This document shows positions 56,336-64,000 of a DNA stretch of 64,000 bases, in pieces (position 1 is the first letter of the stretch; every line of letters starts with the position of its first letter). The stretch comes from Eubacteriales bacterium. Lineage in GTDB: Bacteria > Bacillota > Clostridia > Oscillospirales > CAG-382. A program made the position numbers and the translations under genes. The notes below the pieces were generated by a model. That model was given only the letters and a program-made list of their open reading frames with translations. It made no database searches and had not been told where the DNA came from. Location: contig JBMNMA010000009.1 in assembly GCA_050953105.1 (NCBI GenBank), positions 261,143-325,142 on the forward strand. The letters are read 5' to 3'.

Positions 56336-56433
56336 GTCTGCCCATATAACAGCAAAACCCCGCATTTGAGGGTGCGTCTTAGGGATTTTCAATCCCGGAA
56401 AAATATCGGCATAGTTTGGTATGTATTTACCGG

Positions 56434-58104
56434 CTATGCCGATTTTTCATTCTTTGTGGTGGATGTAGAAACCGGTGGATCAAACTCGCCAATGCAGTTC
56501 CATACAATTTTGATACGCTGTACCCGCCTGCCATCAATGCGCTCTGCCTTGTAAACATAGATTTTTTCAACGAATTCCCGGATAATCTCGGCTGTGAGTT
56601 CCTTTATGTCCGTATACTTTCTTACCAGGGAGAGGAAGTGGTCGACATTGAGAGCGCTTTCTTTTTCCTCTGTCATAATGGATTTCAGTTCCGTTACTCG
56701 CTTCTCAAGAGTCTGCTGCTCGGCTTCATAGTTTGCGGTCATCTTTGTAAAACGCTCATCGGATATCTTGCCCTCTATGTTATCTTCATAGAGCCTTTGA
56801 ATAATCTCGTCCAGCTTGGCGATGCGGGCCTGTGCCTGTTCCGATTCACGTCTGCTGTCACGCATACTTTTGTCAAGCTCTGACCTTGTTTTCTTAGTTA
56901 CCATCTCCACGAATTCTTCCTCACAGTCTCTGGCAAAAGCCGTTACGCGGCGGATGCCGTCAAGGAGCAGTTCCTCAACGGCCGCATTGCGTATCTGGTG
57001 AGAACTGCATCCGCCTTTTATCTTGCGGTAGGTAGCGCATACAAAATACTCTTTTTCATGTTCCCAACCCCGCCCACGCACCTGATACAGCTTGTTTCCG
57101 CAATCCGCACAGAACATCATGCCGGAGAGAAGCGGCATTTCACCCATCGGTGTGAGCCTGCGTCTGCCATCCCTGATTCTCTGCACTACTTCGAATACGG
57201 ATTCCTCAATAATTGCTTCGTGGGTATTCTTGAAGATCATCCACTCCGACGGGTCATTTTTCATCTGCTTTTTCTGCTTATAGGACTTGCGGTAAGTTTT
57301 GAAATTAACCGTATGTCCCAAATACTCCTGCCTTGAAAGCATATGAACTATTGTGCTGCCTCGCCAGACATAATCATCGTCATGGCCTCTGTTGTCCGGA
57401 ATATTGATTCCGTTTTTCCTGGCGTGAGCCGTTGGATTCATAATTCTGCGCCTTGTAAATTCCTTGGCTATCTGCGAAGGGCCATACCCTTGCATACACA
57501 AGCGGAACGCCTCGCGTACCACTTCGGCGGCTTCTTCATCGACTATCCAGTGTGTCTTGTCTACCGGGTCTTTGATATAGCCGTAAGGCGGATTGGTGCA
57601 GAGTGGTTTGCCGGACTCCCCTTTCGACTTGAAAACTGCGCGTATCTTCTTGCTCGTATCTTTGGCATACCATTCGTTGATGATATTAAGAAACGGTGTA
57701 AAATCGCTGTCCTGCTGGTTGGCACTGTCAACATTATTGTTTATTGCTATGAAGCGAATGTCGGAGCCGGGAAAGAGCACTTCGGTATAATAGCCGACCT
57801 TTAGATAATCTCTTCCGAGACGGCTCATGTCCTTGACAATGATGGTGCCAATCCTGCCTTCTTCCACTAGGGAGATAAGGCGCTGCCAATCCGGGCGGTC
57901 GAAGTTCGTACCGCTATAGCCATCATCCACAAAGAACTCAGTGTTTGTAAAACCGTTGTCATCAGCGTACTTCTGTAAAATGGCCTTCTGATTTTTAATG
58001 CTGTTAGAATCACCCTGCAGCTCGTCATCTCGTGAAAGACGGCAATACAGAGCGGTTATTTTATCGTTATTCTTCACAGCAGTATAAGACTGCCTGCTAT
58101 TCAT
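56434..58104 (-). CDS. Large serine recombinase (TnpX-like; resolvase + recombinase + Zn ribbon + DUF4368-type tail)
   Basis: YCRLSRDD catalytic Ser, [49 protein letters not shown]; likely start ATG 58104 behind GGAGG. Confidence 0.93.
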
Positions 58105-58180
58105 GTTTACCTCCTTTCCGACAGTCTTCAAGCGGTACTCTATGTTTCCCGTACTGCCGCGAAGAAGTCAAGTTATTTGT

Positions 58181-58342
58181 TTAAAAAGCCTTATTTAATT
58201 CAAGATTTGCTGTGCCGTTAAGTATCATGCGTTTCAGCTTGTCGTAAGCAGTCTCTTTGGCAGTGCTGCTGACCGCCGATTCTATAATGTAGAGCGTATC
58301 ACCGATTACTTTTTCGGTAACGCTGATAGTCTTTTCAGACAT
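58181..58342 (-). CDS. tnpW: Transposon-encoded TnpW family protein
   Basis: KVIGDTLYIIESAVSSTAKETAYDKLKRMI; directly upstream of the recombinase; GGAG RBS. Confidence 0.8.
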   Translation of the reverse strand: MSEKTISVTEKVIGDTLYIIESAVSSTAKETAYDKLKRMILNGTANLELNKAF

Positions 58343-58367
58343 AAAGACACTCCTCCTTCCTGACTCT

Positions 58368-58462
58368 GGGGGTAGGGGGTAATAAATCCTTACACCCTTT
58401 CGATTGTGCAACGGGCGTGGGGTTTCGCGCGAAAAAACGCGGATTCAAACGGGGTATTAAAG
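58368..58462 (+). other. Candidate cos/packaging-site-like sequence
   Basis: GGGGGTAGGGGGT..AAATCC..AACGGGCGTGGGG..CGCGCGAAAAAACGCGGATTCAAACGGGG resembles non-coding regions next to terS in Firmicutes cos phages (pattern recall only). Confidence 0.35.
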
Positions 58463-58583
58463 GAACAACCGGGATAAAATTCATATAATTGAAATAAACT
58501 TGGTGTGTATTTCATCTTGAAAAGTGCTTTTTTAGGTGAAAAGGCACAGCAGGATTTTCCACTGTGCCTTTCCACCATATGTC

Positions 58584-61832: not shown

Positions 61833-61878
61833 CATTGTATAATACAATGTAAGTGATGTTAAATTTTCATCGCTTACA
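61833..61878. promoter_or_regulatory. Inverted repeats over divergent promoters
   Basis: CATTGTAT-A-ATACAATG (contains TATAAT) and TGTAAGTGATG-N9-CATCGCTTACA. Confidence 0.6.
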
Positions 61879-61907
61879 ATAACGATTACATTCAAAGGAT
61901 GATTGCC

Positions 61908-62858
61908 ATGAAAAAACTACCGGTAGAAAATCTCGGTTTCGTTGAAATTGGCGGCGTTGGCGAGATGATATATAGGGCTGTGCGATTTCCCGAGTATATC
62001 ACGGACTATGACAATGACGGCGAAATAATTAAACCTATCTTCACAGGGGGCCATGCTCCGGAAAGCGGTACTGATTACTCCTTAACCGGGCAGGAACTAT
62101 TGGTCAGCCTATGTAATCTTTACGGAAAATTAAATAACCCAGACAGCACTGTTCCGGTTACAGATGCCGTCTGGGATTGGTGCAGAAACAATATTCACCC
62201 CTACAACATAGACAGTCTTTATGAAATGCTGGATAGCGAGAAGTTTGCACATATAACGTACATGGATTTGATTCAGAAAGATGCCACATTCTATGTAGAT
62301 CAATTCATAAAGGATCTATGCAGTCTGGGTACTGTATTTGAGCTTTACTTTGCCTTGAGAAGGGTTAAATACTACGGAGAAATCGACTACGCAAGGAATC
62401 TTTATTATGAAGGCAGGCTTTGCGACAGCCTCGCTTTTCTTGAAAGACACCGACAATACGAGGATGATGAGGAATACAAGGCCCGTATATTAGAGAATTA
62501 CAATGAACACATATCCCAAGTGATTGATATGTTCCCGGACTTCCGTATGAGACTGAAATTGGATAAGAAAACCGGGAAAGTGATGTACGGCGCCGACATT
62601 CAATCGGTATTCGATATTTGCTGGTACACCTTTTCCAGAATGGTAGCAGACGTTGCACCACCAGTAGATGAAGACCTTAACTATTTTGAATCGCAAGGCA
62701 CGATACTGTCATGCCTTGCCTGCGGGAAATACTTTGTGCGGCATTCAAGCCGCCAGTTATATTGTAATAATTGGGATTGCCAGGCCGAGCGTAATCGAAA
62801 AAACAGGCGAGCAAGCTATGCAAGAAAGAAGGCGGCGGGAGTAAAGAACAAGGAATAA
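61908..62858 (+). CDS. Hypothetical protein with a C-terminal CGNR-like Zn finger
   Basis: CLACGKYF..HSSRQLYC..WDCQAERNRKNRR; divergent from the xis/rep operon. Confidence 0.7.
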   Translation: MKKLPVENLGFVEIGGVGEMIYRAVRFPEYITDYDNDGEIIKPIFTGGHAPESGTDYSLTGQELLVSLCNLYGKLNNPDSTVPVTDAVWDWCRNNIHPYNIDSLYEMLDSEKFAHITYMDLIQKDATFYVDQFIKDLCSLGTVFELYFALRRVKYYGEIDYARNLYYEGRLCDSLAFLERHRQYEDDEEYKARILENYNEHISQVIDMFPDFRMRLKLDKKTGKVMYGADIQSVFDICWYTFSRMVADVAPPVDEDLNYFESQGTILSCLACGKYFVRHSSRQLYCNNWDCQAERNRKNRRASYARKKAAGVKNKE

Positions 62859-62866
62859 AAATTGAA

Positions 62867-62903
62867 CTCGCTACCAGCCACATGGTATGAGTATGGTAGC
62901 GAG
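62867..62903. terminator. Hairpin between convergent genes
   Basis: CTCGCTACCA/TGGTAGCGAG 10-bp stem. Confidence 0.55.
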
Positions 62904-62917
62904 ACAGATGTGGTTTA

Positions 62918-64000
62918 TTAATCTCTCTTTAATATTTCACACAGAGGCAGAATTTCTTCCAGCTTTTTAACAATGCGCTTTTGCTCTGCGAGGGGCGGGA
63001 GAGGTATTAGTGCATTTTTCAACATATCTTGCGTTATTTGATTAATGGTGGTAGTACCAGTATCTTCAAGCAAGGAATTCCTGAAATATGCTGAATTTAT
63101 TACATGAAGAACATACGGATTGCAAATACTTCTATAAACTGCCATGAATGCGCCGAAGCTCATGCCTTCTCGATCCACAATTGCAGCTTTGCCTACAAGC
63201 CGTTTGCTGCCATTCCGAGCGCAAATTAAAATATCACCTATATGGCACATCTTGTTTTCGGGAATATCCATATTGACTCTTACAATATCTTCATAGTCCA
63301 TCTGACCATCTCGGATATTGTTGGATCGTAGCACAATTGTACCATCACTTGTTTGATTCTGAGGACTATATGTTAGGCCAATATTTGTATAACCAATTTC
63401 ACCTAATTTAACCCACTTCCAACTCTCTGGAATATCAAACGGTATCTCAGCCTCTGAAATTTCTGGCAATGGTTTTTCTTTTTTGATTTTTCCTTCCTTA
63501 ATAAGTCTTTGCTTTTCAACCTGAATCTGTTGATAAAGCTCCTCGGCTGTGCCTTCCTCCGGGCGCTGTTCGACCAGTTTGCCCCGGATTGCTAACTGGA
63601 GGATGGATTTATGCAGATCGCTCGGGAAACGCTTATTGAGCTCTTCAAGCTTGCTCCATGCCTTATCATAGCGCTCGATATACGGCATCAATTCATCGAT
63701 TTTTGCAACAATGCGCTTTTGCTCGGCAAGTGGTGGGAGGGGAACAGAAAGTTTGTGCAAAACCTTTGAAGATAAACCTTGAATTCCAATCCCTTTTCCA
63801 TTTATAAGACCTGCATTTTTGTACAAAAAGAAAATATAATAAAAGAACTCAATACAGATTTCATTAAATGGACGTAATCTGTGTATATGATTCTGAATAC
63901 GCATAGGAAAATCATAATTCCAGATAGCTGCTCTTCCAATATCGCCACCTTCTAGAACTAATAAATCTCCTTTTTGAACAGTACATTTTTCAATTTCAGC
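62918..64000 (-). CDS. hsdS: Type I restriction-modification specificity subunit (5' end outside the window)
   Basis: Frame open to the window edge (KGDLLVLEGGDIGRAAIW), two PLPPLAEQKRIV repeats, EIPFDIPESWKWVKLG linker. Confidence 0.92.
   Translation of the reverse strand, partial: AEIEKCTVQKGDLLVLEGGDIGRAAIWNYDFPMRIQNHIHRLRPFNEICIEFFYYIFFLYKNAGLINGKGIGIQGLSSKVLHKLSVPLPPLAEQKRIVAKIDELMPYIERYDKAWSKLEELNKRFPSDLHKSILQLAIRGKLVEQRPEEGTAEELYQQIQVEKQRLIKEGKIKKEKPLPEISEAEIPFDIPESWKWVKLGEIGYTNIGLTYSPQNQTSDGTIVLRSNNIRDGQMDYEDIVRVNMDIPENKMCHIGDILICARNGSKRLVGKAAIVDREGMSFGAFMAVYRSICNPYVLHVINSAYFRNSLLEDTGTTTINQITQDMLKNALIPLPPLAEQKRIVKKLEEILPLCEILKRD

Follow-up and report, generated by a model that had tools for sequence, protein, structure and literature searches.

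The right-hand end of a 64,000-nucleotide stretch of contig JBMNMA010000009.1 from a member of the Eubacteriales (positions 261,143 to 325,142 of the forward strand; the whole stretch is hereafter the window) is occupied by a mobile element of ~12 kb, of which the left ~7.6 kb lie in the window and the remainder beyond position 64000. Here, we describe this element and its relatives, a family of Bacillota integrative elements, 10-13 kb in length, that couple a TnpX-type serine recombinase to a replication module and a single phage capsid gene and that, on balance, are probably phage satellites resembling PICIs (phage-inducible chromosomal islands). The gene list was obtained from six-frame open reading frames (ORFs) together with profile searches (Pfam, TIGRFAM and PHROG). 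For both the capsid gene and orf101, the longest ORF starts too far upstream, the real starts lying behind AGGAGG-type ribosome-binding sites, and the starts of the TnpW and recombinase genes agree with the gene calls in a relative, L070. The features of the element in the window are as follows.

56364..56396, no strand: left (recombinase-side) end, TTGAGGGTGCGTCTTAGGGATTTTCAATCCC; similarity to ~40 loci with unrelated flanks ends here.
56434..58104, minus strand: large serine recombinase of the TnpX type, 556 amino acids (aa) from an MNSRQ start, with Resolvase, Recombinase, Zn_ribbon_recom and DUF4368 domains (Pfam).
58181..58342, minus strand: TnpW-family small protein, 53 aa from an ATG behind GGAAGGAGG (PF14202, E = 5.5e-11); also 53 aa in L070.
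58584..59534, minus strand: homolog of HK97-fold major capsid proteins, 316 aa (PF05065, E = 2.6e-66; TIGR01554, E = 4.6e-71).
59545..59850, minus strand: orf101, a conserved 101-aa protein with a C-terminal zinc ribbon, directly upstream of the capsid gene.
59974..60269, no strand: iteron cluster, 10 exact GTGACAG/CTGTCAC copies and variants in two groups around an AT-rich spacer.
60272..61411, minus strand: PrimPol/D5 primase-helicase remnant, residues 400-768 of a 768-aa protein, matching P4/D5-type helicase profiles.
61424..61651, minus strand: HTH_17/excisionase-family DNA-binding protein, 75 aa (PF12728, TIGR01764), the first gene of the leftward operon.
61652..61898, no strand: putative divergent control region with promoter, palindrome and repeats.
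61899..62858, plus strand: orf319, 319 aa, divergent from the operon, with a C-terminal CxxC...C..C zinc ribbon and basic helix.
62918..64000, minus strand: HsdS, specificity subunit of a type I restriction-modification (R-M) system (PF01420); its frame is open at the window edge and marks the start of the cargo region.

A sequence-only reading of the window had anticipated much of this anatomy. Its TnpX-like recombinase with TnpW, lone HK97 capsid gene, iteron origin after a P4/D5 helicase and xis-like helix-turn-helix (HTH) gene are all corroborated by the profile matches and repeats listed above; its start of the element, at 56368, falls two bases from the left end that we place at ~56366; and the R-M genes that it took for cargo do lie, as HsdR, HsdM and HsdS, between both ends of the element in two relatives. 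The helicase ORF that it called is likewise present, but is a pseudogene rather than an intact gene, and its divergent putative regulator exists as a divergent 319-aa ORF in which no repressor domain is recognizable. The recombinase, which matches a PHROG integrase profile (E = 1.6e-100) and is 93-99% identical in 10 loci, is directed outward, to the end of the element.

The extent of the element emerges from comparison with its relatives. Nucleotide similarity to the window breaks off at 56354-56366 in ~40 loci with unrelated flanks, which sets the left end at ~56366. This end recurs as an imperfect inverted copy at the family's far end, where a conserved segment of ~135 bp starts with AAAGGGAGTTCAACTTAGGGATTT and mirrors, again imperfectly, the recombinase end TTGAGGGTGCGTCTTAGGGATTT; a long terminal inverted repeat was not found at up to 9 substitutions, the repeat being shorter and containing an indel. 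Many loci lose similarity to the window just after orf319, at ~62,880-62,900, and a right end at ~62,900 was considered; it is ruled out by the variable cargo and by the far-end segment itself, which was located in 11 loci, 2.9-8 kb farther out than this point. Moreover, groups of loci have DNA in common past orf319. The motif CTTAGGGATT occurs a single time in the 64-kb window, which indicates that the right end lies past 64000. Complete family members span 10.2-13.3 kb, and one degenerate copy 7.4 kb; by subtraction against L070, the window element would measure ~12.1 kb and end ~4.5 kb past the window. The search for the right end called for by the sequence-only reading has thus located the far end in L070, the window's own right end being beyond 64000.

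L070, a 26.9-kb metagenome contig reached via a 97%-identical orf319 protein, carries a complete member. It is 98% identical to the window over 56344-61375, 95% over 61371-63007 and 87% in the conserved core of HsdS, with different HsdS target-recognition domains. Its element of ~13.3 kb consists of recombinase, TnpW, capsid, orf101, a 768-aa primase-helicase, HTH_17, orf319, HsdS, HsdM, HsdR, an XRE HTH gene and the far end; hence, by comparison, HsdM, HsdR, the XRE HTH gene and the far end are expected beyond the window. Both L070 and L055 carry HsdR, HsdM and HsdS between the two element ends, the synteny holding at 87-95% nucleotide identity. Families of terminase, portal, protease, tail, lysis and relaxase proteins found no match among the L070 genes. 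The sequence-only reading had found no terminase, portal, tail or relaxase gene in the window and had named their presence just beyond 64000 as grounds against its interpretation; none is present either in the window or in this complete, 98%-identical copy. Queries with the large terminase subunit (TerL) and portal of Heliusvirales type likewise recovered no homolog over the loci scanned, and a single weak protease match (L026) lies outside that element.

A scan with the capsid protein, taking one genome per species, returned 59 loci, and ~70 related loci were compared altogether. Nearly all of the 59 have orf319 divergently oriented, followed by HTH_17, the primase-helicase, orf101, the capsid gene, TnpW and the recombinase. 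The core of the family comprises HTH_17, the PrimPol/D5 helicase, iterons, orf101, a capsid protein lacking the delta domain (see below), TnpW and the TnpX-type recombinase, to which the divergent orf319 and variable cargo are added. Cultured carriers with an intact copy include Acetivibrio mesophilus N2K1, Acetobacterium carbinolicum DSM 2925, Syntrophomonas wolfei JCM 14075 and Anaerobium acetethylicum GluBS11, and cultured strains from several orders harbor members with ~90% identical recombinases. Complete genomes with the element are CP181261.1, NZ_CP173357.1, CP181265.1 and OW818679.1. A relative on a Bacillus badius megaplasmid has type III R-M cargo alongside primase, capsid, TnpW and recombinase, and is without orf101 and orf319. 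Single genomes may hold two copies or variants (L044 and L045 on contig JAKVNF010000001.1; L033 and L037 in the same metagenome-assembled genome, MAG), one pair lying 39 kb apart on one contig. In a Thermaerobacter-labelled MAG (L055:7431-8363, plus strand), a 310-aa protein without family assignment takes the place of HTH_17, orf319 and the PrimPol part ahead of the helicase region, and the capsid gene is truncated. The window itself gave no megablast match to phage and plasmid records, nor did exact-sequence look-ups of its capsid (two starts), helicase, HsdS and orf319 proteins; within the element, Rfam yielded no family match, and PADLOC left the core genes unmatched save for one weak HTH match.

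The replication module has a fixed architecture. The full-length 768-aa protein unites a PrimPol part, which matches NrS-1 primase structures, with the NrS-1 HBD, D5_N, DUF5906 and Pox_D5 domains, and its helicase part matches PDB 7OLA (E = 2e-30; the entry is named 'DNA primase'), which we take to be the primase-helicase of SaPI5, one of the Staphylococcus aureus pathogenicity islands (SaPIs). Directly downstream of the helicase gene, between it and orf101, lie the iterons: the 64 kb of the window contain 14 copies of GTGACAG where 2.7 would be expected, and 10 of the 14 fall within 59974-60269. Every family member has 9-12 heptamer copies at the same position, the heptamer being, according to clade, GTGACAG, GTAGCAG, GTGGCAG, CTGTCAG or CTGATAG. 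A fixed architecture with a changing motif is what initiator-iteron pairs display, and the cluster is presumed to be the replication origin; the origins of SaPIs, too, are positioned directly 3' of the helicase gene. In the window copy, 1,183 bp of the PrimPol-helicase gene are deleted relative to L070, L001, L002 and others, with the junction at ~61371-61376 and a 5-nt overlap. This removes the PrimPol part and shifts the frame, so that the replication gene is a pseudogene here, the remaining core genes being intact: the native GTG start at 61395, behind GGAGAGGAGG, meets a stop after 6 codons, and the 379-aa helicase ORF is present only via an upstream out-of-frame ATG, though the remnant (residues 400-768) retains 99% identity to the full protein. 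The window copy could, at best, be replicated in trans.

The capsid protein, whose start corresponds to M19 of the longest ORF, matches positions 85-384 of the 385-position TIGR01554 profile. In a Heliusvirales gut phage, whose capsid protein has 417 aa, it aligns with residues 114-414 (41% identity), and in RcGTA, the Rhodobacter capsulatus gene transfer agent, with residues 79-381 of the capsid protein. It lacks the N-terminal delta (scaffold) domain and is equivalent to the mature part of phage capsid proteins. To judge from a survey of the best 50 of the 50%-identity clusters drawn from 1.8 billion proteins, this short form is an old and diversified clade rather than a recent truncation: 41 of these 50 clusters have lengths of 290-345 aa and align from their N-termini, and the delta-bearing capsid proteins (385-420 aa) rank lower, with identities of at most 41%. 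The gene is intact in 57 loci, with a ratio of nonsynonymous to synonymous substitution rates (dN/dS) of 0.10, close to those of the recombinase and the helicase (0.07 each) and inside the range of 0.07-0.18 over all core genes. It belongs to the core of the family and has been maintained by purifying selection.

Of the uncharacterized components, orf101 has four invariant cysteines (C71, C74, C95 and C98) and 56 homolog clusters, none of them annotated; its AlphaFold2 (AF2) model (pLDDT 93) retrieved nothing below E = 0.1 in fold searches of PDB and BFVD. That it might be a detached delta domain was considered and ruled out, as there is no similarity. The orf319 protein, with 217 homolog clusters and a dN/dS of 0.09, gives no Pfam match above threshold; weak DUF6076 matches occur in 27 of 45 members and zf-CGNR in 11 of 45, and a fold search of PDB with its AF2 model (pLDDT 80) returned nothing below E = 0.1. 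It is presumed to be a regulator by its position, a CI/XRE repressor occupying the equivalent place in the sister elements described below; no recognizable repressor domain was found in it, and a Stl-type repressor is likewise not recognizable in the element. In Tn6164 of Clostridioides difficile, Orf6 beside R-M cargo is reminiscent of orf319, the two being likened by description only (PMC3485107). The intergenic region between orf319 and HTH_17 contains the best sigma-70-like promoter match of the element (61862-61834, minus strand; TTAACA-17-TACAAT, a match to the consensus only), with a perfect palindrome, CATTGTATAATACAATG (61831-61847), over the -10 and further ACAAT/ATTGT repeats around it; its function as a control region is inferred from these consensus and repeat matches.

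The ends of the element bear the marks of its target. At the recombinase end, the flanks read as an A-run and then 6-10 GC-rich bases, and among the eight loci in which both ends are available, five have flanks that are mutually reverse-complementary well above chance, for example AAAGAACCTCCCT...AGGGAGGTTCTTT in L026, with comparable pairs in L021, L024, L022 and L004. The target is hence the center of a palindrome that has the look of an intrinsic terminator working in both directions. Half-sites of it are resembled by the ends of the element itself, as is expected of dyad-symmetric serine recombinase sites, and in the window the recombinase end together with its flank forms a terminator-like hairpin (56373-56357, minus strand). 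The terminator of the HEPN-domain gene to the left of the element, at 56310-56327, lies 30 nt ahead of the half-palindrome into which the element inserted. At the junctions the sequence is ...T|TTGAGGG and ...|(T/A)AAAGGGAG, and the GA of Tn4451 is not present; the crossover is probably at the TT/AA beside 56364-56366, the shared dinucleotide being most simply AA/TT, possibly TA. Upon excision, the joined ends would be expected to read ...AAATCCCTAAG-ACGCACCCTC[A/T]A-AAGGGAGTT-CAACTTAGGGATTT..., and the half-palindrome ATGCGGGGTTTT would be expected just past the far end of the window element. The 135 bp of the far end contain a hairpin with a T-run and two covarying base pairs. Across L004:1777-1920, L026:551-694, L070:16439-16582 (minus strand) and six others, this segment is 81-96% identical at the nucleotide level, above the proteins of the same elements. 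It could be a terminator of recombinase read-through across the attachment site of the circular form (attP), a small RNA or a packaging signal. Apart from it, no distinctive conserved non-coding block was found.

The contexts in which the short capsid occurs outside the family offer the strongest support for a phage-dependent life style. In L077, a tyrosine integrase and an XRE repressor are divergent from an HTH_17-like gene, which is followed by a PrimPol-D5 helicase, small ORFs, Terminase_4 (a small terminase subunit, TerS, of the P27 family), the short capsid gene and a toxin-antitoxin pair, which is a classical PICI layout. It shares with the window family a homologous PrimPol-D5 helicase, HTH_17 as first gene, the delta-less capsid (43% identity) and the order of replication genes, small ORFs and capsid; in contrast, it has the tyrosine integrase, XRE repressor and Terminase_4 where the window family has the serine recombinase, orf319 and orf101. 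Terminase_4 also stands directly upstream of the short capsid gene in L083, and in L082 the same capsid protein precedes a TnpW-like gene and a recombinase with DUF4368. In L079-L081, a CI-like repressor sits at the orf319 position, an orf101 homolog (L079, E = 9e-14) directly precedes the capsid gene and the large serine recombinase is a different one; HTH_17 equivalents head the operon in both L077 and L079. In the examples examined, orf101 and the P27-family TerS use the same slot and are never found together. The nearest delta-bearing capsid (P0220), for its part, belongs to a siphophage with the order HNH, TerS (P27), TerL, portal, ClpP protease, capsid, connectors and tail. It is because the same delta-less capsid clade adjoins a P27-family TerS in L077 and L083 that the satellite interpretation gains support.

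This interpretation is reinforced by comparison with known satellites. PICIs with capsid homologs are documented, namely SaPIbov5 with its Ccm and PmCI172 (PMC8569155, PMC6092414, PMC6893505). Like the cos-type SaPIs (SaPIbov5) and PmCI172, the family forms islands of ~12-13 kb with an iteron origin behind the primase/helicase, an excisionase-like HTH, a lone HK97-fold capsid homolog as the sole structural gene and accessory cargo at one side, and is without TerL, portal, tail and lysis genes. Set against the features that characterize PICIs, it has an integrase and defined ends (a serine-type integrase and inverted terminal repeats), a primase/helicase with an adjacent iteron origin (the window retaining intact iterons beside a helicase gene that is a pseudogene) and a length within ~10-15 kb, with lysis, tail and full head genes lacking (members of 10.2-13.3 kb; gene list of L070). 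As regards divergent regulation, orf319 stands opposite HTH_17 with the palindrome over the promoter, but shows no recognizable repressor domain. Unlike the SaPIs, whose integrase is a tyrosine recombinase, the family has a serine integrase, placed where the operon ends; SaPIs have no equivalent of orf101 and TnpW, and the hosts are anaerobic Clostridia. Further, Ccm possesses its own delta domain, residues 1-87, which is cleaved (PMC8569155), whereas the capsid homolog of the family has none.

Other satellites show narrower parallels. The PLE satellite of Vibrio cholerae also has a large serine recombinase and its own origin, such that a serine-recombinase satellite is not new as such; it differs in its unrelated gene content, the want of such a capsid homolog, its Gram-negative host and its known helper and induction. 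Capsid-forming PICIs (cfPICIs, e.g., EcCICFT073) likewise encode an HK97-type capsid protein, but alongside all the other head and packaging proteins (protease, portal, connectors and terminase), whereas the family has the capsid protein only. With P4-like satellites the family shares the TIGR01613 primase C-terminal domain and an AlpA-like HTH; the Sid, Psu and Delta families of these satellites found no match in the profile searches of the window. Our literature searches on TnpW or DUF4368 with capsid genes and on serine-recombinase satellites recovered no description of the family. Thus, the family is real, widespread and apparently undescribed, a variant of the PICI-type satellite theme.

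We therefore propose the following life cycle, every step of which is inferred, its anatomy being what is observed. The TnpX-type recombinase, with its preference for dyad-symmetric sites, would place the element in the center of a terminator-like palindrome, where the divergent control region would silence the leftward operon of HTH_17, PrimPol-helicase, orf101, capsid, TnpW and recombinase, with orf319 as the presumed regulator. Induction, presumably by a helper phage, would switch the operon on, and the recombinase would excise the element as a circle. The PrimPol-helicase would then fire the iteron origin downstream of its own gene in SaPI-like fashion. The delta-less capsid protein would enter the procapsids of the helper, depending on the latter's capsid protein, protease and portal, and divert assembly to particles suited to ~12 kb, into which orf101, in the place of the P27-type TerS of the sister elements, would direct packaging by the helper terminase. 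A more far-reaching version, which we regard as possible but speculative, is that the delta-less capsid stands for a so far undescribed form of capsid hijack, in which an already mature subunit enters shells solely by co-assembly with delta-bearing helper subunits, so resizing or capturing procapsids, and that orf101, with its orphan fold, replaces TerS in marking satellite DNA for packaging; together with hairpin-targeted serine integration, this would make the family a separate, very widespread satellite lineage among anaerobic Bacillota.

Several observations weigh against the satellite interpretation. Public contigs offer no direct sign of excision or packaging: the detection of circular forms, which the sequence-only reading had put forward as a check, came out negative there, the joined-end (attP) pattern having no match among 241 million metagenome records and, in IMG/VR, matching just three palindromes, all unrelated. 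(The IMG/VR cases, L073-L075, 31-61 kb, belong to an unrelated phage group in which a palindrome, AAATCCCTAAG-N18-CTTAGGGATTT, has both end motifs by chance, with none of the element genes nearby.) No helper phage was identified, the best phage capsid match being 36-41% identical. The cos-like DNA of the sequence-only reading found no support: no stretch is distinguishable as cos, and neither cos nor pac was recognized. A comparison with three related phage loci, which has little power as long as the helper is not known, showed no non-coding similarity. Of its SaPIbov5-like module the lone capsid homolog remains, without a Ccm-type delta domain or a recognized cos, and its clostridial satellite family stands as a family-level mobile element with the comparative support of TerS beside the capsid in L077 and L083, shorn of the cos argument. 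The window family is without TerS, the delta-less capsid has no shown route into a procapsid, and orf101, orf319 and TnpW have no known function. Finally, copies with 94-98% nucleotide identity are found in bins and isolates of different orders, with a relative on a Bacillus plasmid; this spread exceeds what phage host ranges typically allow and is more in keeping with conjugation or transformation, although the MAG binning of mobile DNA is unreliable. In favor of packaging, there is an indirect hint in the family fragments held among viral sequences in IMG/VR and in the GenBank record 'Bacteriophage sp.' MT838964 (human faeces), though the capsid gene alone would earn them such labels. The RefSeq name 'phage major capsid protein' leads prophage and virome tools to label 5-13-kb fragments of the family as viral.

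These observations lend themselves to a different account, which we rate as unlikely on the whole, namely that the family consists of integrative mobilizable elements (IMEs) in the style of Tn4451, which would be excised by the TnpX-type recombinase, replicate briefly as plasmids and move by conjugative mobilization (through an oriT mimic) or transformation, the capsid being an anti-phage or other accessory unrelated to transfer. Such an account would accommodate the near-identical copies across orders and the relative on a Bacillus megaplasmid, as well as the absence of TerS, of a recognizable cos and of attP or virome evidence. The TnpX-type domain set and TnpW are common to the Tn4451 family, and Tn4451 and Tn4453 resemble the elements described here in their large serine recombinase with a DUF4368 C-terminus, their TnpW-family gene and their low-specificity insertion at sites resembling their own joined ends. 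IMEs without a relaxase are, moreover, known (PMC5704250). However, the TnpZ relaxase, RS_A oriT, TnpV, TnpY and GA-flanked ends of Tn4451 all lack a counterpart in the family, which differs further in having its recombinase outward-directed at the end of an operon and in its replication and capsid modules; the Tn4451-like module of the sequence-only reading is thereby reduced to the TnpX type and TnpW. No complete member has a relaxase, a coupling protein or a TnpZ/RS_A-type oriT gene, and relaxase families found no match among the genes of the window or of the complete relatives. The capsid is a universal core gene under purifying selection that resides inside the operon rather than in the cargo, and the same capsid is paired with a small terminase in sister elements. 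The phage-transduced C. difficile transposon Tn6215 was considered as a precedent and set aside as a different kind of element, since it has a TnpZ remnant, RepA_N and a topoisomerase, and no capsid gene.

The cargo raises another alternative. Elsewhere in the family it includes type IIG and type III R-M systems, a ShosA/ShosT-like pair, BlaR1/BlaI-like proteins, APH-like kinases, a sigma factor and ImmA/IrrE with XRE; the cargo region is a defense and resistance hotspot. The Shosta-like pair, at L058:2140-6839 (minus strand), comprises ShosA (E = 1e-52) and a 1,251-aa UvrD-like/ShosT-like protein. The elements might be resident defense islands, or phage-interference elements that are no longer borne in particles, with the delta-less capsid acting as a dominant-negative poison and the R-M or Shosta cargo adding further defense. 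A pre-trimmed capsid unable to scaffold itself could cap or derail helper assembly, most of the cargo consists of defense genes and the window copy has lost its replication gene while keeping capsid, orf101 and recombinase intact. We nevertheless hold this to be improbable: dozens of independent hairpin insertions and mosaic exchange bespeak ongoing mobility, and interference is compatible with satellite transfer, Ccm both interfering and serving the transfer of its satellite (PMC8569155). Least credible of all is that a prophage is decaying here or that capsid and transposon came together by chance, to which a lone capsid gene beside an integrase and the deletion in the window copy might point, but against which stand the same compact order with intact ORFs in ~60 loci of many taxa, the defined ends on both sides, the dN/dS values of 0.07-0.18 and the age and diversification of the short capsid clade.

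Phage satellites are well studied in staphylococci, enterobacteria and vibrios, but scarcely so in the strict anaerobes prevailing in guts and digesters. The family is common (217 orf319 clusters, 59 genome loci), carries defense and resistance-like genes, and offers a compact system for studying how a scaffold-less capsid protein enters a shell, the role of TnpW and the choice of terminator hairpins by a serine recombinase as safe landing sites.

The exchange of parts among these elements is apparent in individual pairs. L007 and L040 have 99% identical cargo and orf319 regions, and the resemblance of their capsid-recombinase halves to the window is 95% and 66-82%, respectively; L022 and L052 have BlaR1/BlaI cargo in common at 93%. 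The elements are mosaics.

Just left of the element in the window, a nucleotidyltransferase (MNT-like) gene at 54558-54902 (plus strand) and a HEPN-domain gene at 55850-56311 (plus strand), with an HD-domain-like ORF at 55405-55863 between them, look like a HEPN/MNT toxin-antitoxin pair. Upstream of these, a cyclic di-GMP-I riboswitch (53839-53926, plus strand; 74.6 bits) precedes a 159-aa ORF (54075-54554) with an apparent signal or transmembrane segment. Elsewhere in the window, a thiamine pyrophosphate (TPP) riboswitch is found at 13165-13255 and a tRNA at 15440-15528.

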